Assembly: GCA_963719165.1 (NCBI GenBank)
Contig: CAVRAV010000001.1
Location: forward strand, 1,829,215-1,893,214
Direction of reading: 5' to 3'
Length of the DNA stretch: 64,000 bases
DNA from: an uncultured Actinomycetes bacterium
GTDB taxonomy: Bacteria; Actinomycetota; UBA4738; HRBIN12
The notes under the pieces were generated by a model. That model was not told the origin of the DNA, ran no database searches, and saw only the letters and a list, made by a program, of their open reading frames with translations. Positions 3,735 to 49,018 of the stretch are shown piece by piece (the stretch's first letter is position 1; the number at the start of each line of letters is the position of its first letter). The translations under genes and the position numbers were made by a program.

Positions 3735-4934
3735 ATGCGCCTGAGCGCCGAGGACGCGCACCTGCAGGCACGTGCGCGCGCCTTCACCGACCAGGTGTTG
3801 ATCCCGCTCGAGGACGAGTGCGAAGACAACGACGGACTCTCCATCGCGAGCGCGGCGGCGGCCAAGCAGGCGGTGCTGGACCACAGGTTCAACGGCATCA
3901 ACCACTCCGTCGCCGACGGCGGACAGGGATTCGACCTGTTCCAGCAGATGCTCGTCGAGGAGCAATGGGGACGGGCGACCGGGGCGCTCTGGGACATCCC
4001 GTGGCGCCCGGCGATCCCGCTTCGCCGCGGCACCGAGGCGCAGAAGGAGCGGTACCTGCGCCCCGCGTTGCGGGGCGACCGGCGAGACGCGTACGCGATC
4101 ACCGAGGAGGGAGCGGGATCGGACCCCACCATGGTCGCGACGACGGCGCGGCGCGACGAGGGCGCGTGGGTGATCGACGGGGAGAAGTGGCACGTCACGT
4201 CCGGCGACGTCGCCGACTTCTTCGTCGTGCACGCCCACGTGGATGGCGATCCCGCCCTGGCAACCGTCTTCTTGGTGGACAAGAGCGCGCCGGGCGTGCG
4301 CCTCGTTCGCACGCCGAAGTACACGCACACGTTCGTCTTCGAGCATCCGATCTTCGCGTTCGAAGGGGTGCGCCTGGACGACGACGCGATCTTGGGCGAG
4401 GTCGGGCAGGGCTTCGAGCTCACCAAGGATTGGTTCGTCGAGGAACGGATGATGATCGGGGCGCGAACCGTCGGCGCCTCGACCCGGGCGCTGCGAGCGC
4501 GCGCTCGACGTTCGCGACAGGAGCGCGTCCAGTTCGGCCGGGCCATCGTGGGCTTCCAGGCGATCGAGTTCATGCTCGCCGACATGGCCGCCGAGCTGAT
4601 GGCCGCGAAATCGCTGCTGTATCGCGCGTGCTGGGAGGCGGCGCGGGGCGGCGCAGACCGCAAGCAGACCCATGCCATGGCGAGCGCCGTCAAGCTCGTG
4701 TGCTCGGAGACCGCCGGACGGATCATCGACAAGGCGGTCCAGATATTCGGGGGACGCGGCTACATGCGCGAGGAGCCCGTTGAGCGCCTCTACCGAGAGA
4801 TCCGCGTGGACCGGATCTGGGAGGGGACCTCGGAGATCCAGCGGATGGTGATCGGCAACGAGCTGCGCAAGCGTGGCGCCGAGCTGTATGCGGGGTGGCC
4901 CGGGATCGAGGCACGCACGCCCCGGGGGGCGTAA
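3735..4934 (+). CDS. Acyl-CoA dehydrogenase
   Basis: ATG at 3735 preceded by GAGGAGG. MRLSAEDAHLQARARAFTDQVLIPLE...[12 protein letters not shown]...GFQAIEFMLADM...[10 protein letters not shown]...[11 protein letters not shown] are ACAD family motifs. Confidence 0.85.
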   Translation: MRLSAEDAHLQARARAFTDQVLIPLEDECEDNDGLSIASAAAAKQAVLDHRFNGINHSVADGGQGFDLFQQMLVEEQWGRATGALWDIPWRPAIPLRRGTEAQKERYLRPALRGDRRDAYAITEEGAGSDPTMVATTARRDEGAWVIDGEKWHVTSGDVADFFVVHAHVDGDPALATVFLVDKSAPGVRLVRTPKYTHTFVFEHPIFAFEGVRLDDDAILGEVGQGFELTKDWFVEERMMIGARTVGASTRALRARARRSRQERVQFGRAIVGFQAIEFMLADMAAELMAAKSLLYRACWEAARGGADRKQTHAMASAVKLVCSETAGRIIDKAVQIFGGRGYMREEPVERLYREIRVDRIWEGTSEIQRMVIGNELRKRGAELYAGWPGIEARTPRGA

Positions 4935-26913: not shown

Positions 26914-27837
26914 ATGAAGTGGAAGCGCGGAACGCGCAGCGTCAACCTCGAGGATCGACGCCGCCAAGGAGGCGGCACCCGCTCGGGCGGCCTCGGGGGC
27001 ATGGGAGGCCTCGGGGGAGGCGGCGGCGGGCTGCCGCTGCCCACGGGCAGGGGCGGGATCGGCGTCATCGTGCTGGTGCTGGTGCTGGTGCTGATCGGTG
27101 GCTCTCGGCTGTTGGGCGGAAACGGGACAGGGGTCGACACGGGAGGGGCGCTCGATGGGTTCGGGCCGGGACCCAGCACCGGCGGTCAGATCCCGCCCGG
27201 CGACGAGAAGCTCGCCGACTTCGCCTCGTTCGTGCTGGACGACGTCCAGGGGTACTGGACGGTCGTGTTCCGCGACGCGGGGCGGACCTATGCGCCGGCC
27301 ACGATGGTCCTGTTCACACGATCCACGCGCACGGCGTGCGGGACCGCCTCCTCGGCCACCGGCCCGTTCTATTGCCCGGCCGATCAAAAGGTCTATCTGG
27401 ACCTGGGGTTCTTCCGCGAACTTCGCGATCGATTCGGGGCGGGGGGAGACTTCGCCCAGGCCTACGTGATCGCGCACGAGCTCGCCCACCACGTCCAGGA
27501 CGAGCTCGGCATCAACGCGCAGGTGCAGCGCGCATCACGAAGCGACCCCTCCTCGGCCAACGACCTGTCGGTCCGCCTCGAGCTCCAGGCGGACTGCCTG
27601 GCGGGCGTGTGGGCGCACTCGGTGCAACAGCGCGGTGACTTGGAGGCGGGCGACATCGAGGAGGGCCTGAACGCGGCCGCCTCGGTGGGCGACGACCGGA
27701 TCCAGGCGTCAACGACCGGGCGGATCGACCCCGAAACCTGGACGCACGGGTCGTCGGAGCAGCGTTCCCGCTGGTTCCGAACGGGGTTCGACGGGGGCGA
27801 CATCAGCGCCTGCGACACGTTCTCCGGCTCGACCTGA
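26914..27837 (+). CDS. YpfJ-family neutral zinc metallopeptidase (PF04228), membrane-anchored
   Basis: Gly-rich N-terminus followed by the TM segment [13 protein letters not shown]. The zinc-binding HExxH is at AHELAHHVQ. Confidence 0.7.
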
Positions 27838-28906: not shown

Positions 28907-29701
28907 TCACCCGGCCGCCGGGCGTCGTCGCTCCACGTACCCGAGACGCCGGGAGATCGCCGTGGCCGCCTCCATCGTCAAGCGTCCGATCCGCGGGAGA
29001 TCCATCGGGCGCATCCGGAAGGCCGGCCCGCTCACGCTGAGGGCCGCCACCGCCTCGCCGTCCGCGCGGCGGATCGGGGCGGCCACCGCGTTCAGCCCCT
29101 CCTCGAGCTCCTCCATCGTCGTGGCGTACCCACGCGCGCGGATCTCGCCGAGCTGGGTGCGGAGCTTGCGCGGGTCCGTGATCGTGGCGGACGTCGTGCG
29201 GGCGAGCGGCGCGGCAAGCAATCGATCGCGTTCCCGATCGTCCAGGTTGGCGAGGAGCATCTTCCCGTTCGACGTAGCGTGCAGCGGCGTGCGGCGCCCC
29301 ACCCAGCTGACGGCCACGATCGACCGGGTCCCGGTCACCTGATCGATGTACACGACGGCGTCGCCCGACAAGACGCCGAGGTTCACCGTCTCGCGCGTGC
29401 GGTCGGCGAGGTCCTCCAGGATCGGACGAGCGGTTCGGACGAGGTCCATGCTCGCCATGGCCGCGCCCGCGAGCCTTATGAGGCCGAACCCGAGGCGATA
29501 CTTCTCGGTGATGGGGTCGCGCTCCACCATCGCCCGCTCGGCGAGCGTCGCCACGAGCCGTGAGGCCGTGGCCTTGTGCACGTCGAGCCGGCGACCCAGC
29601 TCGGAAACGCCCAGCTCCCCCGCCTCGGCGATCAGCTCCAGCGCCCGAAGCGCGCGATTCACCGACTGGAGGTTCCCGCCGCGCTCCGATCCGTCTCGCA
29701 T
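28907..29701 (-). CDS. IclR-family transcriptional regulator
   Basis: [43 protein letters not shown] is the HTH, followed by an IclR effector domain. It lies divergent to soxB across about 190 bp. Confidence 0.85.
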
Positions 29702-29890
29702 CCCGCAACACCCGTCCGCTCGCCACGACCTTGGGGCAACAACGCTCGGACGCTACGCCGGGCCCCGCGAGGCTGTCAACGCGCTGAGCGCGCGTGCGTT
29801 GCGCCTGTCGCGCCCTGTCCGTTGACCACGGCCGGGCCGTCCCCGAGGCTTGCGGCATCGGAGCCTGAGGTGCTCCGCGCTGGGTCCGAC

Positions 29891-31099
29891 ATGTCCGAGG
29901 AACGATCGCGCTATTGGCGAGCCGCCGAGCCGAAGGCTGCCTACGACGTCATCGTGGTGGGTGGAGGCGGCCACGGCCTCGCCACCGCCTACTATCTCGC
30001 CGCCGTCTACGGCATCGCCGACGTGTGCGTGGTGGAGAAGGGGTGGATCGGCGGCGGCAACATGGCACGCAACACCACGATCATCCGCTCCAACTACCTC
30101 TGGGACGAATCCGCCGCCATCTACGAGCATTCGTTGCGGTTGTGGGAGGCGCTCGAGGAGACGCTCGAGTTCCCGTTGGAGTTCTCCCAGCGCGGCGTCC
30201 TCAACCTCGCGCACGACCTCGGTGACGTGCGCTCGAGCATGCGGCGTGTGAACGCGAACCGGCTCAACGGCGTCGACGCGGAATGGCTCGACGCCGGCGA
30301 GGTGAAGGGGTTCTGCCCCATCGTGAACGTTTCGCCCGACGTCCGCTACCCGGTGCTCGGCGGCACGTTGCAGCGTCGCGGCGGTGTGGCTCGCCACGAC
30401 AAGGTGGCGTGGGCCTACGCCACGAACGCCGACCGCCTGGGCGTGGATATCGTGGAGCACGCCGAGGTCACGGGGTTCCTGCGCGGCTGCGACGGTGCGG
30501 TCGTGGGCGTGGAGACGTCCCGCGGCTCGATCCGCGCCAACCGCGTGGCGCTCGCCGCAGCCGGACATACGAGCGTCCTCGCCTCGATGCTGACCCTGCG
30601 GTTGCCGATCCAGTCGCACCCACTCCAGGCGCTCGTCTCCGCGCTCTACGAGCCCGTGCTGCACACGGTGGTGATGTCGAACGCCGTGCACGTGTACGTG
30701 AGCCAGGCGGACAAGGGCGAACTCGTCATGGGCGCCGGGATCGATCCGTACAATGCCTACACGCAGCGCGGCTCCTTCCACGTGATCGAGCATCAGATGG
30801 CGGCCGCGGTCGAGCTGTTCCCGCTCTTCGCTCGCGCCAGCGTGCTGCGAACCTGGGCCGGCATCGTGGACGTCAGCCCCGACGCCTCGCCCATCATGAG
30901 CAGGACGCCCATCCCCGGTCTCTTCCTCAACTGCGGGTGGGGGACGGGCGGGTTCAAGGCGACGCCCGCGGCCGGTCGGGTGTACGCCGAGTTGGTCGCG
31001 AACGGCGAGCCGGGGCCGCTCGCGCGTCCTTACGCACTGGAGCGCTTCACCACGGGGGCCCTGATCGACGAACACGGCGCGGCGGCGGTCGCGCATTGA
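29891..31099 (+). CDS. soxB: Sarcosine oxidase beta subunit (heterotetrameric)
   Basis: [36 protein letters not shown]... is 403 aa. The stop TGA lies inside the first repeat unit. Confidence 0.85.
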
Positions 31100-31246
31100 C
31101 TGCGCGCGTGGGAGATGCGCATTGACTGCGCGCGTGGGAGATGCGCATTGACTGCGCGCGTGGGAGATGCGCATTGACTGCGCGCGTGGGAGATGCGCAT
31201 TGACTGCGCGCGTGGGAGATGCGCATTGACTGCGCGCGTGGGAGAT
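31091..31246. repeat. Perfect tandem repeat, 6 x 26 bp (GCGCATTGACTGCGCGCGTGGGAGAT), at the soxB/soxD junction
   Basis: Read directly from the sequence. Each unit carries the soxB 3' end (gcg cat TGA) plus a GGGAGA Shine-Dalgarno and an ATG. A partial 'gcgc' follows the last unit. Confidence 0.95.
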
Positions 31247-31251
31247 GCGCC

Positions 31252-31533
31252 GTGCTCTTGATCCCTTGCCCCTACTGCGGGCCGCGCGAGGAGACCGAGT
31301 TCCACTACGGCGGGCAGGCGCACGTGGCCTACCCCGCGGATCCGGCCGCGCTCTCCGACGAGGAATGGGCCGACTTCCTGTTCATGCGCGAGAACCCGAT
31401 GGGCGCATGGTCCGAGCGATGGGTACACGAAGCTGGATGCCGGCGGTGGTTCAACGTGGTGCGTTCCACGGCGACGAACGAGATCCAGGCTGCCTACGCG
31501 ATCGGCGAGCCGCCGCCGAGAGGCGACGGGTGA
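31252..31533 (+). CDS. soxD: Sarcosine oxidase delta subunit
   Basis: GTG at 31252, 6 nt after the GGGAGA of the last repeat unit, gives MLLIPCPYCGPREETEFHYGG..., the SoxD Cys-rich N-terminus. An in-frame ATG at 31219 inside repeat unit 5/6 is an alternative start. Confidence 0.8.
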   Translation: MLLIPCPYCGPREETEFHYGGQAHVAYPADPAALSDEEWADFLFMRENPMGAWSERWVHEAGCRRWFNVVRSTATNEIQAAYAIGEPPPRGDG

Positions 31534-34220
31534 CATCCTCGCGCCGCTCCGAGGGCGGCTCGGGGATCGACCGCGGCGTGCCGTTGCGGTTCTCCTTCGA
31601 CGGGTCCACCCGCGAAGGCTACGCGGGCGACACGCTCGCGAGCGCTCTGCTTGCCAACGGCGTGGACGTCGTGTGCTCCTCGCCGATCCTCAACCGCCCG
31701 CGTGGCGTGTTCTCCGCAGGGGTCGAGGAGCCCTGCGCCTTCGTGGAGGTGAGCGCGCCGCGGCTCGAACCAATCGTGGCCGCCCCAGCCGTGGAGCTGG
31801 TCGATGGGCTGAGGGCTGCGGGCCGCCCCGGCGTGGGACGACTCCGGGAGGACGATGCCGGTGCCGCGCCGGCCGATCACCGGAACGTGCATGTGGAGAC
31901 CCTCGTGGTGGGCGCCGGCGTTACCGGCCTTCGCGCCGCGCGCGAGGCCGCGCGCTCCGGTGAGCGCGTGATGCTCGTGGACGAGCGCCACTGGCTCGGA
32001 GGCACGGCGCACAGCGCCGCCGACATCGACGGGGAGGCGGCGGCGGCCTGGGTACAGATCGTGGCCGCCGAGCTCGACGAGGCGCCTGGGGTGCGCGTCT
32101 TGCCGCGCGCCACCGCGCTCGGCGTGTACGACGCGGGCTACGTCGTCGTGGCGCAGAGGAGCCGGGGCGCGGAGCGCATCTGGCACGTGCGTGCCGGGCG
32201 CGTGGTCCTCGCCACCGGGGCCCACGAGCGCCCGATCGCCTTCGCCGACAACGATCGCCCCGGCGTCATGCTCGCATCCGCGGCCGTGCTCTACGCCGAC
32301 CGGTTCGGCGTGCTGCCCGGCGAGCGGGCCGTGGTCTTCACGACGAATCACGGCGGCCACGCGGCGGCCGAGGCCCTCGCCGAGGCCGGCGTCGAGATCG
32401 CGGCGATCCTGGACGCCGGCGAGGGCGGCCCCGCCACCGATCGCGCGCGCGACCGCGGTATCGAGGTGCGCACCCGCTGGGCCGTGGCCTCCACCGCGGG
32501 GGGCGACCGTGTCCGATCGGTCCTCGGGGTCGGGCCCGACGGGGTCGAGGAGGTGTTCGATGCGGACCTCGTCCTCGTGGCCGGTGGGTGGAACCCCGTC
32601 GTCCAGCTGTGGCGCGGCATCGGCGGCGGCGTTCGCTACGACGACGACCTCGCCTGCTTCCTCCCCGACGGCCCGGCACCGCCATGGCTCGAGATCGAGG
32701 GAGCCGCCGCGGGGGTCGGTCTGCCCGCCGTCACGCCGTACTGGTTCACGCCCGGGGCCGACCTCAGCCACCACTTCATCGATCTGCAGAGGGATTCGAC
32801 GGTCGCAGACGTGCTCGACGCGGTCGACATGAACCTGCGGTCGATCGAGCACGTGAAACGGGCGACCTATATCGGCACGGCCATCGATCAGGGACGCACG
32901 AGCGGCGTCCACACGGCCGCCATCGTGAACGAGGCCCTGGGCGCCGGCCCAGGCGCCCAGGGCCCTTCGAACAGCCGGCCGCCGTATACCCCGGTGCCGT
33001 TCGCGGCCCTCGCCGGCCGCGACCGTGGGAACCTGCTCGATCCCGTGCGCTCGACGCCGATCCACGCGTGGCACGTCGAGCACGGCGCCACCTTCGAGAA
33101 CGTCGGCCGATGGAAGCGCCCGCGCTTCTTCCCGGCGGGTCCCTCGGAGGCTCTGGATGCCGCGGTGGACCGGGAGTGCCTCGCCGTGCGGGGCTCCGTG
33201 GGCGTCCTGGACGCATCGACCCTGGGAAAGATCGAGTTGGCGGGTCCCGACGTGGGGACCTTCCTCGACCGGCTCTACACCAACCGGATGTCGAGCCTGG
33301 CGATCGGCGCGATCCGTTACGGCCTCATGCTGGGGATCGACGGCATGGTGATGGACGATGGCGTGGCCATGCGCCTCGCACGGGATCGCTACCTCCTCAG
33401 CACGACGACCGGCGGAGCGGCCCCGGTGATGAGCCACGTCGAGGAATGGCTGCAAACCGAGTGGCCGGACCTTCGTGTCTGGGCCACGAGCGTCACCGAG
33501 CAGTGGGCGACGGTGGCGGTGAACGGACCCCGCGCGCGCGATGTGCTGTCACGGCTCGGCACGGGGATCGCCCTCGACGCCGCGTCGTTCCCGTTCATGA
33601 GCTGGCGCGAGGGTGTCGTCGCTGGCATGCCGGCGCGGATCGCCCGCGTGAGCTTCAGCGGCGAGCTCGCCTACGAGATCTCCGTGCCGGGCTGGTACGG
33701 GCTCGCGATGTGGGAGGCCGTGATGGCCGCTGGGACCGCCTTCGGCATCACGCCCTACGGCACCGAGTCCATGCACGTGCTGCGCGCCGAGAAGGGGTTC
33801 CCGATCGTGGGCCAGGACACCGACGGCACGGTCACGCCCCACGACCTCGGCATGTCGTGGATCGTGAACGAGACCAAGGAGGACTTCATCGGCAAGCGAT
33901 CGCTCTCGCGCCCCGAGGCCAGACGCCTCGATCGCAAGCACCTCGTCGGACTCCTGCCCGTGGAGCCCGACGCCGTGCTGCCCGAAGGCGCCCAGATCGT
34001 GCTGCGCGACACCGGGACGATCCCCATGCCGATGGCGGGGCACGTGACCTCGTCCTACCGCAGCCCCGCGCTCGACCGCTCGATCGCGCTGGCGATGGTG
34101 GCGGGGGGTCGCGACCTGATCGGCACGACGGTGTTCGCCCCCCTCCCCGGGGCGACGATCCCCGCCGTCGTGACCGCTCCGATCTTCTTCGATCCCGAGG
34201 GAACGCGCCGTGACGGCTGA
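31530..34220 (+). CDS. soxA: Sarcosine oxidase alpha subunit
   Basis: The GTG overlaps the soxD stop (GTGA). The ORF is 896 aa. HVETLVVGAGVTGLRAAREAA marks NAD/FAD binding. The C-terminal GcvT-like domain has ...FSGELAYEISVP.... Confidence 0.9.
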   Translation: MTSSRRSEGGSGIDRGVPLRFSFDGSTREGYAGDTLASALLANGVDVVCSSPILNRPRGVFSAGVEEPCAFVEVSAPRLEPIVAAPAVELVDGLRAAGRPGVGRLREDDAGAAPADHRNVHVETLVVGAGVTGLRAAREAARSGERVMLVDERHWLGGTAHSAADIDGEAAAAWVQIVAAELDEAPGVRVLPRATALGVYDAGYVVVAQRSRGAERIWHVRAGRVVLATGAHERPIAFADNDRPGVMLASAAVLYADRFGVLPGERAVVFTTNHGGHAAAEALAEAGVEIAAILDAGEGGPATDRARDRGIEVRTRWAVASTAGGDRVRSVLGVGPDGVEEVFDADLVLVAGGWNPVVQLWRGIGGGVRYDDDLACFLPDGPAPPWLEIEGAAAGVGLPAVTPYWFTPGADLSHHFIDLQRDSTVADVLDAVDMNLRSIEHVKRATYIGTAIDQGRTSGVHTAAIVNEALGAGPGAQGPSNSRPPYTPVPFAALAGRDRGNLLDPVRSTPIHAWHVEHGATFENVGRWKRPRFFPAGPSEALDAAVDRECLAVRGSVGVLDASTLGKIELAGPDVGTFLDRLYTNRMSSLAIGAIRYGLMLGIDGMVMDDGVAMRLARDRYLLSTTTGGAAPVMSHVEEWLQTEWPDLRVWATSVTEQWATVAVNGPRARDVLSRLGTGIALDAASFPFMSWREGVVAGMPARIARVSFSGELAYEISVPGWYGLAMWEAVMAAGTAFGITPYGTESMHVLRAEKGFPIVGQDTDGTVTPHDLGMSWIVNETKEDFIGKRSLSRPEARRLDRKHLVGLLPVEPDAVLPEGAQIVLRDTGTIPMPMAGHVTSSYRSPALDRSIALAMVAGGRDLIGTTVFAPLPGATIPAVVTAPIFFDPEGTRRDG

Positions 34221-34770
34221 GCCGGTCGCGAGGTCTCCGCTCGCGCACCGGTCGCAGCACCTGAGGGCCATCGGGACCGTCGATCGATCCCTATGGGTTG
34301 CGGAGGTGCCGTTCCTCACGCAGGTCGGCCTTCGTGCCGAAGGCGTCCCGACCTCCGGTCTCGCCCTGCCCCTCGAGCCCGACACGGTCCGCATCGACGG
34401 CGAGCGTGCGACGCTGTGGCTGGGTCCCGACGAGTGGCTCGTCACCGGCCCGCCAGGCTCCGCGGGGGCCGTCATCGCGGATCTGCACGCCGGCCTCGGA
34501 GACCGGCCTCACGCCTGCATGGATCTATCGGCGAACCGCGCGGTGCTCGACCTCGGTGGCTCGGTCGCGTTCGAGGTCCTCGACCGCGGATGCTCACTCG
34601 ACCTGCACCCCTCGCGATGGTCCGAGGGCATGTGCGCCCAGACGAACCTCGCCCGGGCGCAGGTGATCCTGCAGCAGGGGCCGGAGGTCACGAGGATCTT
34701 CGTGCGGCCCTCGTTCGCGAGCTACCTCGTGGACTGGCTCGCGTCCGCCGCCGCGGCGGTCGGGGGCTGA
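34210..34770 (+). CDS. soxG: Sarcosine oxidase gamma subunit
   Basis: The GTG start overlaps the soxA stop. The ORF is 186 aa in the canonical soxBDAG order. Confidence 0.75.
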   Translation: MTAEPVARSPLAHRSQHLRAIGTVDRSLWVAEVPFLTQVGLRAEGVPTSGLALPLEPDTVRIDGERATLWLGPDEWLVTGPPGSAGAVIADLHAGLGDRPHACMDLSANRAVLDLGGSVAFEVLDRGCSLDLHPSRWSEGMCAQTNLARAQVILQQGPEVTRIFVRPSFASYLVDWLASAAAAVGG

Positions 34771-45920: not shown

Positions 45921-46934
45921 CTACGCCGGCTGCGCCGCCATCCCGGCGTCCACCCACGGCTGCCAGACCTGCGGGTTCTGGTCGATCCAGTCCTGAGCGG
46001 CCTTCGCTGGGTCATCCCCCTTGCTGATGCCCAGGCCGATGATGTTCTGGTCGTCGTTCGTGTAGGTCATCGCGCTCAAGAAGGCGAAGGCGGCCGGCGC
46101 CTTCGTCTGGAGATCCTGGTTGAAGGCCTTGTAGAGGTCGTCCTGCGGGTAGGCGCACGCGTACTTGGTGGCGTCATCCGCCGCCGCCTGCTCGCAGGCG
46201 GGCGTGACGTCGGGCAGCTTCATCATGGTCAGGTCGTACTTCTGCTGGGCCCAGTGGGGCGTCCAGAAGTACATCAGGATGGGGCCCTTCTTCTGGTACG
46301 CGGCGTCGAGGGCGGACAGCTCCGCGTCCTCCGAACCGCCGTACACGACCTTCATGTTGAGACCGAGGTTGTCGGCGATGGGCTGGTCGAAGGTCACGAA
46401 GCTCGGATCGCCGTCGAGGATCTGACCCTGGCCCGGCGTCTCGCTGGTCTGGAACAGGGTCTCGTTGCCCTTCAGGCCCTCCCAGGTCTTGAGCTCGGGA
46501 TGGGTGTCCAGCATGTAGGTCGGGAACCACCAGCCGATCTGACCGGTCACCCCGAGCAGTCCCCCGTCCACCACGCCGTTGCCGGATTCGATGTACTTCT
46601 TGTAGTCCTCCGCGTGCCCGGACGGCCACACCTCGAGGGTGGCGTCGATCTGCCCCTTCGCGATCGCGGGGAACTGCGCGTACTCGGAGATCTTCTTGCT
46701 GTCCACCGCGTAGCCGAGCTTGTCCTGCAGCAGCTGCTCCGCCACGGCGACGTTGGCGGCCGACCCGACCCACGGGTTGATCGCGAACGTGATCGTCGTA
46801 CCGGAGTTGTCGGGCGCGGAACTCCCCGACGCGCTCCCCGACGCGCTCGAGTTGTCTTTCACGTCGCTGCAGGCGCTCATGAGCAACACGATCGCCACCG
46901 CGAACGCACCGATCGCCCAACCTCGCTTGGTCAT
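45921..46934 (-). CDS. Glycine betaine/proline betaine ABC transporter substrate-binding lipoprotein (ProX/OpuAC-like)
   Basis: ATG at 46934 after GAGGAG. MTKRGWAIGAFAVAIVLLMSAC is a lipobox, followed by an OpuAC-family domain. Confidence 0.8.
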   Translation of the reverse strand: MTKRGWAIGAFAVAIVLLMSACSDVKDNSSASGSASGSSAPDNSGTTITFAINPWVGSAANVAVAEQLLQDKLGYAVDSKKISEYAQFPAIAKGQIDATLEVWPSGHAEDYKKYIESGNGVVDGGLLGVTGQIGWWFPTYMLDTHPELKTWEGLKGNETLFQTSETPGQGQILDGDPSFVTFDQPIADNLGLNMKVVYGGSEDAELSALDAAYQKKGPILMYFWTPHWAQQKYDLTMMKLPDVTPACEQAAADDATKYACAYPQDDLYKAFNQDLQTKAPAAFAFLSAMTYTNDDQNIIGLGISKGDDPAKAAQDWIDQNPQVWQPWVDAGMAAQPA

Positions 46935-46945
46935 CCCTGCTCCTC

Positions 46946-49018
46946 TCATCGCGAACCTTCCCCTTCTCCTACGTCGTCGGCTGCCCCTCGGGACGGGGCC
47001 ATCACCGAACGCTCCTGATGCCCCGACGCCCTTCCGGTGGCCGAAGCCTGGCCGAGCGCCTGGGTGATCCGGTCGATCACGATGGCCATCAACAAGATCG
47101 CGACGCCGGCGACGACGCCCAGACCCGGATCGTGCGACAGCCCGTTGACGATCAGGTAACCGAGGCCCGCGCCGCCGACGAGACCCGCGATGATCACGAC
47201 GGAGAAGACCATGATGACGGTCTGGTTCACGCCGAGCAGGATCGAGGGGCGGGCGAGCGGGAGCTGCACCTTCCACAACGTCTGCGCCGGGGTCGCGCCG
47301 AAGGCGTCGGACGCCTCGACGATGTCCTTGGGGACCTCACGGATGCCCAGGTCCGTGAGCCGTACGCCTGGCGGCAGCGCATAGACGAGGGCCGCGATCA
47401 CGCCGGGGACCCTCCCCACCCCGAACAGCGCGACGGCCGGCACTAGGTAGACGAACTGCGGCATCGTCTGCATCGTGTCGAGGATGGGCTTGAGGACCGC
47501 GTGGACGCGGTCGCTCGTGCCCGACCAGATCCCGAGCGGGATGGCGAGCACCACCGAGGCGACGACCGCCACCAGGACCTGGCTGAGCGTGTTCATGGCG
47601 GGGTCCCACATCCCGATGACACCGACGCCGGCCAGCAGGAGGAACGCGAGCAGCGGGAGCGTCCATCGCCTCGAGACCGCCCAGCCGATCAGCGCCGCGA
47701 AACCGCAGACCATCCACCAGGGCAAGCCGGTGAGCAGCTTGAAGAGGGGGTCGAGGGCATAGCGGATCGTCGCACCCGTGAGGGCGGTGGTGGCTCCCCC
47801 GAACGTTCGGAGCACCCAGGACTCGGCCTGGTTCACGGGCGCCGAGATCGAGACCGCGAGCGATGACGGGAAGTCTTGCTGACGGAGCACCTGGCGCCCG
47901 ATGAAGATCGCCGCGATCACCGCCACCACGGCCACGACCAGGATCATGCGTCGCGACACGACGACGCCCAGGATGCGCGAACCGCTCGACCCGCGCCGGA
48001 CCCGATCGCGCAGGCTCCACGAGAAGGTCACGCGATCGAAGACGATGGCCATGGCCACGATGGCGAGCCCGGCCGCGAGCGCCTCGCCCACGTTCAAGGT
48101 GCTGAGGGCATCGAGCACCGACTGACCCAGCCCCCCCGCGCCGATGGTGGCCGCGAGGACCACGATCCCCAGCGCCATCATGATGCTCTGGTTCACGCCG
48201 AGCATCACGGACGGCTTCGCGAGCGGGAGCTGGACCTTGCGAAGCATCTGTCGCGAGGTCGCGCCGAAGGAACGGCCCACCTCGAGCGAACCTTCCGACA
48301 CCTGCTTGATCCCGAGGCTAGTGAGCCGGATCGCGGGCGGGATCGCGAAGATGACCGTCGCCGCGATCGAGGGCGGAGCCCCGATGCCGAGCAGCAGCGC
48401 GAAGGGCACGAAGTAGGAGAACGCCGGGATGGTTTGCATCGCGTCGAGGATTGGGCGCAGGGCTCGCTCCACCCGCGGATGACGCCCGGCCCAGATCCCC
48501 ATCGGAAGCCCCACCGCGACCGAGATCGCGACCGAGATCGCGATCAGGGCCAGGGTCTCCAGGCTGGCCTCCCAGAATCCGAGCACGCCGAAGGACAGGA
48601 ATCCGACGGCGGCGAGGACGCCCATGCGCCAGCCCGCGAGCACGCCGGCGACGGCGGCCGCGAGCGTCACCACCCCGACCCAGGTCAGGCGGGAGAGGAA
48701 CAGGACGAGGTTGTCGTACAGGGACTGGAACGCCGTCTGCATCGGCGTGAGCACGTGTACGAAGAAGGCGTTCGTGCGCTGGTTGTCGATGACCCAGTTC
48801 ACGAAATCGTTGAACGGTTTCGCGGCGTCGACCGTCAGGCTCTTCGGGAAGCCGGGCGTGAGCTGAAGGCCGACGATGACGGCGACGACGACACCCGCGA
48901 TCCACACCAAGCGTCGGCGCCAGCGAGGCCGGGCACGGAAGACGAGGTCGCTCCGTTCCGCGGCCTCCTCGCGCTCGAGCTCGCCCAGGCCGGAGGACGG
49001 CGGTGCTTCAACCGTCAC
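46946..49018 (-). CDS. Glycine betaine ABC transporter permease with two fused TMDs (ProW/OpuAB-like)
   Basis: 690 aa. Two repeated permease modules each carry the EAA-like loop (...LGATSRQMLRKVQLPLAKP... and ...FGATPAQTLWKVQLPLARP...). The GTGA overlaps the proV stop. Confidence 0.8.
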   Translation of the reverse strand: MTVEAPPSSGLGELEREEAAERSDLVFRARPRWRRRLVWIAGVVVAVIVGLQLTPGFPKSLTVDAAKPFNDFVNWVIDNQRTNAFFVHVLTPMQTAFQSLYDNLVLFLSRLTWVGVVTLAAAVAGVLAGWRMGVLAAVGFLSFGVLGFWEASLETLALIAISVAISVAVGLPMGIWAGRHPRVERALRPILDAMQTIPAFSYFVPFALLLGIGAPPSIAATVIFAIPPAIRLTSLGIKQVSEGSLEVGRSFGATSRQMLRKVQLPLAKPSVMLGVNQSIMMALGIVVLAATIGAGGLGQSVLDALSTLNVGEALAAGLAIVAMAIVFDRVTFSWSLRDRVRRGSSGSRILGVVVSRRMILVVAVVAVIAAIFIGRQVLRQQDFPSSLAVSISAPVNQAESWVLRTFGGATTALTGATIRYALDPLFKLLTGLPWWMVCGFAALIGWAVSRRWTLPLLAFLLLAGVGVIGMWDPAMNTLSQVLVAVVASVVLAIPLGIWSGTSDRVHAVLKPILDTMQTMPQFVYLVPAVALFGVGRVPGVIAALVYALPPGVRLTDLGIREVPKDIVEASDAFGATPAQTLWKVQLPLARPSILLGVNQTVIMVFSVVIIAGLVGGAGLGYLIVNGLSHDPGLGVVAGVAILLMAIVIDRITQALGQASATGRASGHQERSVMAPSRGAADDVGEGEGSR

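Follow-up and report, generated by a model that had tools for sequence, protein, structure and literature searches.

Mycobacterial interspersed repetitive units (MIRUs) have a unit size of roughly 46-100 bp. As described in PMC12548453, which cites Supply et al. 1997, they are tandem units placed between the genes of operons, with an open reading frame (ORF) coupled at -4 nt, and they are thought to minimise the impact of insertion. Here we analyse a 26-bp tandem array lying between soxB and soxD, two subunit genes of a sarcosine oxidase-type operon, in a stretch of 64,000 nucleotides from an uncultured Actinomycetes bacterium (assembly GCA_963719165.1, contig CAVRAV010000001.1, positions 1,829,215 to 1,893,214 of the forward strand). 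This whole stretch is called the window below, and positions are counted from its first letter. By architecture, MIRUs are the closest analogue of the array: in both cases tandem units of variable copy number stand between operon genes of an actinobacterium (soxB and soxD in the window, soxB and yjbR in its relatives), and each unit holds a short ORF with -4 stop/start overlaps, TTGA being present at every unit boundary of the window, where coupling is predicted. The array unit, in contrast, is 26 bp long and visibly derives from the local soxB/yjbR junction, whereas MIRUs are dispersed and apparently mobile. It was found at one locus only, in the 64 kb window and among 96 related loci, and its host is a clade of uncultured Actinomycetota, not Mycobacterium. 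The array is MIRU-like on paper, but it lies outside the family by unit size, local origin, host and, in the sequences searched, lack of interspersion.

A second point of comparison is termination-reinitiation. Between adjacent genes, spacings of -4 to +3 nt give the most efficient coupling, little of which is left beyond about 20-40 nt, and a downstream gene can receive its ribosomes from a short ORF (PMC12548453, PMC10666635); overlaps are enriched among the subunits of heteromeric complexes (PMC10666635). Known coupled pairs overlap as NTGA (-4) or TGATG (-1), and the array boundaries do likewise (ATTGA in the window and in the related loci L087 and L089, TGATG in L090), again between genes for subunits of a heteromeric enzyme. 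The difference is that a single overlap is involved in the known cases, whereas 2-6 identical mini-cistrons follow each other in series here, with a function that is predicted. Beyond MIRUs, nothing was found in the literature searched on a tandemly repeated coupling junction or relay.

By structure and by its copy number differences between species, the array reads as a slipped-strand minisatellite, or variable-number tandem repeat (VNTR): its 26-bp unit, repeated 6.15 times head to tail with 100% identity, falls within the usual unit size of about 10-100 bp, and its homogeneity resembles concerted evolution. Most described VNTRs, however, lie in coding regions or promoters, while this one is anchored on a stop codon and keeps its stop/start architecture as well as a 2 mod 3 period. 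With the simple-sequence contingency loci that drive phase variation it shares a unit that is not a multiple of 3 beside a coding sequence, but neither reading frame nor any recognisable promoter spacer contains it, and it has no on/off frameshift logic.

Our preferred reading, to which we assign a probability of about 0.6, is that the array is a genuine, lineage-restricted minisatellite of variable copy number, born from a duplication of the soxB-stop/yjbR-start junction, across which ribosomes would reach soxD by reinitiation or by direct loading on a Shine-Dalgarno (SD) sequence.

The array and its chain of mini-ORFs

The array was delimited with Tandem Repeats Finder (TRF) and by exact and mismatch searches. 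It and the elements that it carries are as follows:

31091-31250, + strand: tandem array, six perfect 26-bp units GCGCATTGACTGCGCGCGTGGGAGAT followed by GCGC (6.15 copies)
31240-31245, + strand: Shine-Dalgarno-like GGGAGA, 6 nt upstream of the soxD GTG; recurs at 31110, 31136, 31162, 31188 and 31214
31096-31261, + strand: chain of six mini-ORFs, with TTG at 31096, 31122, 31148, 31174, 31200 and 31226

The array is real. TRF reports it at 31091-31250 with period 26, 6.2 copies, 100% matches and a score of 320, the strongest tandem array of the 64 kb window, where all others score 74 or less. By exact matching, units start at 31091, 31117, 31143, 31169, 31195 and 31221 and are followed by GCGC, so that six identical copies stand head to tail between the soxB stop (31097-31099) and the soxD GTG at 31252. 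No further copy was found on either strand of the window with up to 3 mismatches, and no dinucleotide shuffle out of 100 contained a match to the unit. The preliminary description of this DNA, made from the letters alone, had already reported six perfect 26-bp head-to-tail repeats; its limits of 31086-31260 located the array correctly but were slightly too wide. It had also placed the soxB stop in the first unit, the soxD SD in the last one and the six ATGs in all three frames in rotation, and all three statements hold. The window contains three other perfect tandem repeats with a unit of at least 3 bases and a length above 20 bp (27070-27093, 46822-46848 and 48515-48543): GTGCTG repeated four times and two 12-bp units repeated 2.2-2.4 times, none of them near the 26-bp array in size.

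Each unit does contain GGGAGA and an ATG, as the same description had it, but the two share one base (GGGAGATG). The spacer is 0 nt long, and the unit ATGs are therefore poorly placed for SD-directed initiation. The internal TTG is better positioned, at the same 6-nt distance after GGGAGA as the soxD GTG, and it overlaps the TGA of its own unit (ATTGA, -4). Because 26 equals 27 - 1, each ORF opened by a TTG ends on the TGA of the next unit and overlaps the next TTG. Five of the mini-ORFs encode the same 9-codon peptide, LTARVGDAH; the last one encodes a different, 11-residue peptide. The chain runs unbroken from the soxB stop, and its last stop (TGA, 31259-61) overlaps codon 3 of soxD, an in-frame TTG at 31258. 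The earlier proposal of a ladder of SD+ATG decoys is weak on two counts: the ATGs have no spacer, and the TTGA chain leads toward soxD, not away from it. As a side observation, the third codon of soxD is TTG in the window (31258-31261) and CTG in the aligned relatives, and it is this TTG that creates the TTGA overlap with the last mini-ORF stop.

At the RNA level, a long structure is predicted over the array, and a short inverted repeat joins its two borders:

31077-31287, + strand: predicted long RNA hairpin of the array, minimum free energy (MFE) -144 kcal/mol
31073-31080, + strand: left arm CACGGCGC of an 8-bp inverted repeat, inside soxB

In the window's unit, GAUGCGCAUU and CUGCGCGCGUGG, each an RNA quasi-palindrome, are joined by GA, and six copies would therefore zip into one long hairpin. 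The predicted MFE of -144 kcal/mol compares with -106 +/- 3.8 kcal/mol for shuffled sequences (z about -10), while a one-copy reconstruction gives z +0.8; in the folding model, every further unit is worth about -21 kcal/mol. The soxD SD, with a predicted unpaired fraction of 0.85 at one copy, drops to 0.34 once there are two or more. Folded as single-stranded DNA the array has z -6.1 (sense) and -4.9 (antisense), and such folding would probably favour slippage in the window's variant. The arrays of the relatives fold with z of -2.7, -0.9 and +1.2, and a conserved function of the hairpin was rejected on that basis: in the models it is a peculiarity of the window's variant and not what the family shares, though it may still matter locally. 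The right arm of the short inverted repeat, GCGCCGTG (31247-31254), contains the soxD GTG, and the two arms are predicted to pair at every copy number modelled; CACGGCGC/GCGCCGTG may be an ancestral coupling element that acts by RNA unfolding. In Rfam no family reached its gathering score. The sole match, MIR9657, a plant miRNA precursor (31114-31201, 28.8 bits against 53), is spurious and caused by the long hairpin.

Homologous arrays in relatives and origin of the unit

The soxB-soxD gap was compared across 80 orthologous loci. They come from species-representative genomes that do not include the source species, and their SoxB proteins reach at best 84% identity. It is usually between -1 and about 35 nt long, against 152 nt in the window, where it would be 22 nt without the five extra units. 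Further relatives were obtained by a protein search (SoxB identity 85-91%) and their DNA, from JGI metagenomes, was then fetched. Four of these loci carry an array:

L087: SoxB identity 91%; unit GCGCATTGACTGCGCGCGGGGGATGG; 2.7 copies
L089: SoxB identity 90%; unit GCGCATTGACTGCGCGCGG(T/C)GGGTGG; 2.7 copies
L090: SoxB identity 88%; unit GCGCACTGATGCGCGCGGTGGAGGGG; 4.7 copies, perfect
L091: same SoxB as L090, from another sample; unit as in L090; at least 2.8 copies, the contig ending inside the array

All four have a period of 26, all are anchored on the soxB stop, and they come from four different JGI samples. Three related species are concerned, all of them uncultured Actinomycetota, and the nearest genomes are metagenome-assembled. 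In the SoxB tree the window, L087, L089, L090 and L088 form one clade, to which L092/L094, which have no array, are sister. Copy number at the orthologous soxB stop is thus 6.15 in the window, 2.7 in L087 and in L089, 4.7 in L090 and 1 in L088, these differences being between species only. Comparison with orthologous loci, which the preliminary description had proposed as a check, yields homologous junctions with 1 to about 5 copies of the unit, and its qualification of the repeat as VNTR-like is borne out by a copy number that differs among relatives at the same locus. Single-copy junctions devoid of an array are found in L088, inside the clade, and in the outgroups L092-L096, L001-L011 and L083. 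The order soxB-yjbR-soxD is present there without a repeat in L088 (SoxB identity 90%), L092-L096 (85-86%), L001-L005 and L007-L009, as well as in L086; L006, L010, L011 and L083 have a plain soxB-soxD junction.

A search of JGI metagenome contigs with an exact 27-mer of the unit gave no match, and a degenerate pattern for the SoxD N-terminus retrieved five loci from them, none conspecific with the window. P0001, the protein with the top bit score, was set aside, its locus having only 78% DNA identity and no repeat.

What do the arrays have in common? The soxB-stop anchor and the 26-bp period are shared by all four array-bearing lineages, and the period is held even though L090-type and TGAC-type units differ by a +1/-1 pair of indels. 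A G-rich, SD-like tail stands 5-10 nt before the start in all four lineages, and the overlapping chain of mini-ORFs is intact in all of them, with TTGA (-4) in the window, L087 and L089 and TGATG (-1) in L090. In the relatives the chain reaches the start of the downstream gene; in the window it runs just past it. The units of L087 and L089 differ by 3 substitutions, all of them at third positions of the TTG frame, leaving the peptide LTARGGWAH unchanged. A pattern of this kind would arise about 1 time in 27 by position alone; it is suggestive, though the sample is tiny.

In the relatives the array is followed by a 113-aa gene of the YjbR family (PF04237), and then by soxD. The core of the unit, TGCGCGCG(T), is the beginning of that yjbR gene (ATGCGCGCGTCG...). 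Because the homologous arrays precede yjbR and the core matches its start, the array family must predate these species and have begun at the soxB/yjbR junction. The window, where no yjbR homologue was found anywhere in the 64 kb, has its array next to soxD because its lineage lost yjbR. The earlier description of a recent amplification of the soxB/soxD coupling junction is accordingly right in part: a stop/start junction was amplified in tandem, units 2-6 being copies of the last soxB codons and stop, and their perfect identity points to recent expansion or homogenisation, but the family is older and started from soxB/yjbR. More widely in the nearest relatives, a YjbR/MmcQ-family gene of 112-113 aa (PF04237) stands between soxB and soxD, usually with a TGATG overlap with soxB (L088 3709-4050, L089 2717-3058, L090 3011-3352, and also the L001-L005 and L007-L009 junctions).

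The simplest history would have four steps. An ancestor of the clade would have duplicated in tandem 26 bp spanning the soxB stop and the yjbR start. Each lineage would then have expanded, contracted and homogenised its array, and that of L088 would have shrunk to one copy. Finally, yjbR would have been deleted in the window lineage, making the purine-rich tail of the unit the present SD of soxD. Among 93 loci the unit core occurs only at this junction, and a viral collection gave single matches at chance level. An origin as a dispersed or mobile element was considered and found no support in the window, the fetched loci or the viral contigs.

Repeats are found at the same junction in other lineages. 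In Streptomyces (L037 5192-5258; L013, L016, L042 and L071) a degenerate 11-bp repeat, GCCCGCTGAGA, is present in up to 6.1 copies (80% identity). Like the window's array, it starts at the soxB stop and copies its TGA, and the gap varies from 23 to 85 nt between species. The related metagenome contigs L084 (about 4040-4090) and L085 (about 700-790), a third lineage with junction repeats, have differing numbers of degenerate, approximately 13-nt caaacacagcgcc repeats in the soxB-soxD gap.

Weighing the explanations

In the preferred reading, a junction is copied together with what makes it work. Each unit holds the last soxB codons and TGA, a start that overlaps this TGA, and a purine-rich, SD-like tail; the 2 mod 3 period would make of each unit a mini-cistron of 8-9 codons whose stop overlaps the start of the next, so that each added copy would regenerate the coupling junction that it displaces. 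The array would grow and shrink by replication slippage or unequal exchange, which would explain why its copies are identical within a genome while species diverge. Ribosomes leaving soxB would either re-initiate along the mini-ORFs or load directly on the terminal SD, and SoxD would still be made in spite of a 152-nt gap and a hairpin predicted to be stable. We infer that the array is tolerated because ribosomes still reach soxD, by either of these routes, and that its effect is probably a modest change at most, with a SoxD:SoxB ratio somewhat below that of the one-copy state. The translational relay by mini-ORFs is the least assured part, with a chance of roughly one in three; we hold the rest of the account with high confidence.

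Several points weigh against it. The last mini-ORF stops 7 nt beyond the soxD GTG and not on it, no good SD precedes the first TTG (31096), and TTG is a weak start codon. The peptide is not kept across the deeper split. The chain itself could be a by-product of geometry, as any duplication of a junction with a 2 mod 3 period yields one (prior about 1/3), and a single ancestral event could account for it in every lineage. The array is dispensable, since L088, of the same clade, has a single copy. In the folding model the soxD SD is mostly paired at two copies or more, and expression could be impaired rather than preserved. That a ribosome sitting at the soxB stop would free the SD was also considered, and rejected for three copies or more: under constrained folding the helix re-registers and SD accessibility stays at 0.34, that is, the modelled ribosome leaves the SD paired. 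Lastly, no conspecific genome was found: the count of six comes from one assembly, and the differences in copy number are between species.

Part of these points can be turned into the main rival account, which we regard as possible though on balance unlikely: the array would be a neutral or slightly deleterious product of slippage, ribosomes would bind afresh at the last GGGAGA and initiate at GTG 31252, and the chain would be an untranslated by-product. It fits with the absence of arrays from L088 and all outgroups, with a copy number that appears unconstrained from 1 to 6, with the change of mini-peptide, and with weak TTG starts of which the first lacks an SD. Moreover, the degenerate repeats of other lineages at the soxB-soxD junction (L037 and other Streptomyces; L084/L085) have no start codons, and the site may simply tolerate insertions. 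Less easily explained on these terms are the period of 26 kept through a +1/-1 pair of indels, the chain intact in four lineages despite a changed type of overlap, and the three L087/L089 substitutions, every one synonymous in the TTG frame; in addition, two subunits of one enzyme should otherwise become uncoupled across a structured gap of 152 nt (PMC10666635).

The same observations can be pushed in the opposite direction. The array might be a relay of coupled mini-cistrons that is maintained by selection, with a number of units adjustable by slippage that tunes subunit stoichiometry; selection would then hold the 2 mod 3 period and the overlaps, even as the sequence of the unit drifts and becomes homogenised, and in the window lineage the hairpin would open only for translating ribosomes. 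We consider this rather improbable. If true, it would be a locally born counterpart of MIRUs, showing how operons absorb intercistronic expansions.

A role exerted chiefly through RNA structure is decidedly improbable. Here the near-continuous hairpin of about 75 bp would be a processing or stability element of the RNase III type that splits soxB from the soxDAG messenger, or a mask over the soxD ribosome binding site, lowering or uncoupling downstream expression as copy number rises. The large shift of predicted z between one and six copies, the gain in stability with each unit and the loss of SD accessibility all go in this sense, and structure just downstream of an upstream stop is known to correlate negatively with coupling (PMC12548453). 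However, the hairpin is a thermodynamic prediction, it is not conserved in the homologous arrays, and it matches no Rfam family.

An assembly artefact, either a spurious array or a wrong number of copies, had been raised in the preliminary description. Assemblers fail at perfect repeats, and this array (160 bp) is longer than a 150-nt read. It is free of repeated k-mers only at k of at least 135, and six copies are the most that a graph with k=141 resolves, so that six could be a floor. The contig of L091 ends inside its own array, and no second assembly of the source species was found. Against this, four independent assemblies contain homologous arrays of identical period, and three of these arrays (68-121 bp) are shorter than a read; the unit-to-unit join GGGAGATGCGCATTGA (GGGAGAT joined to GCGCATTGA) cannot be produced from single-copy reads; and the 2.66 Mb contig that bears P0002, a database protein 100% identical to the window's SoxB, suggests that long-read data were used. 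A spurious array is very unlikely, and the exact count of six is probable.

A phase-variable contingency switch, also among the earlier proposals, would turn soxD or soxB on and off with copy number. In its favour are a perfect, slippage-prone repeat, a unit length that is not a multiple of 3 and a copy number that differs among relatives. It is excluded in its classical form: from its place between the soxB stop and the soxD start the array changes neither frame, whatever its copy number; how the last two ATGs stand to soxD and soxA is set from the 3' end; and there are no promoter-like hexamers whose spacing the array could alter.

Neighbouring genes and significance

The genes around the array, and the two ATGs of its last units that bear on their annotation, are as follows:

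29891-31099, + strand: soxB, sarcosine oxidase beta family (TIGR01373, 611.6 bits, cut-off 529; PF01266); start at ATG 29891 inferred
31219-31221, + strand: unit 5 ATG, in frame with soxD, to which it would add 11 residues; no spacer to GGGAGA
31245-31247, + strand: unit 6 ATG, opening a 991-codon ORF (31245-34220) that crosses soxD out of frame and continues in the soxA frame
31252-31533, + strand: soxD, delta subunit (PF04267, 1e-37; TIGR01374, 130.9 bits, cut-off 116.5)
31530-34220, + strand: soxA-like alpha subunit (TIGR01372, 1036 bits, below the cut-off of 1164; Pfam GCV_T, SO_alpha_A3 and Fer2_4)
34210-34770, + strand: soxG-like gamma subunit (PF04268, 1.6e-17; TIGR01375, 98.4 bits, below the cut-off of 143.95)

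The naming of the two flanking genes as soxB and soxD was correct, both scoring above their NCBIfam cut-offs. The adjacent beta, delta, alpha and gamma genes follow the soxBDAG order; soxA and soxG are below their cut-offs but have the right Pfam domains and position. Unit 1 opens with 9 nt of soxB, namely its last codons GCG and CAT and its TGA (31097-31099), and the identity of SoxB to P0002 extends over 402 aa. In the junction alignments the soxD GTG at 31252 aligns with the ATG or GTG starts of the relatives (MLLIPCPYCG...), and the soxA-like start overlaps the soxD stop by 4 nt. The ATGs borne by the repeat are likely to be a trap for annotation: the one at 31219 gives an N-extended soxD of 104 codons (31219-31533), and gene callers may be misled into a 104-aa 'SoxD' and a 991-aa 'SoxA'.

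No promoter-like site or hexamer was found in 29000-32000, nor any with a spacing that the array could alter. The TTGACT present in each unit was considered as a -35 box and rejected, no promoter-like site having been found. Conservation is uneven across the locus: just upstream of soxB, window positions 29006-29711 share 93% DNA identity with L088 1580-2285, which falls inside an IclR-family regulator gene in L088, while soxB itself has only about 83% DNA identity between the window and L088.

Tandem arrays of 30-33 bp (3-11 copies) were also seen upstream of soxB in loci of Nonomuraea and Paenarthrobacter, unrelated in sequence to the window unit:

L019, 3500-3841
L046, 1500-1699
L049, 1603-1814
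L045, 1496-1600
L035, 153-244

We classify the soxB-soxD array as a locally born, MIRU-like minisatellite of mini-cistrons that are putatively coupled. If its chain is not translated, it is no more than a tolerated minisatellite, of modest interest. Assemblies from short reads break at this spot. With 1, 2, 4 and 6 units, i.e. 0 to 130 extra nt, at a single junction of a heteromeric-enzyme operon, the clade provides a natural series suited to testing whether coupling can extend over long distances through serial mini-cistrons. It also points to a way in which MIRU-like repeats might arise from an ordinary gene junction.

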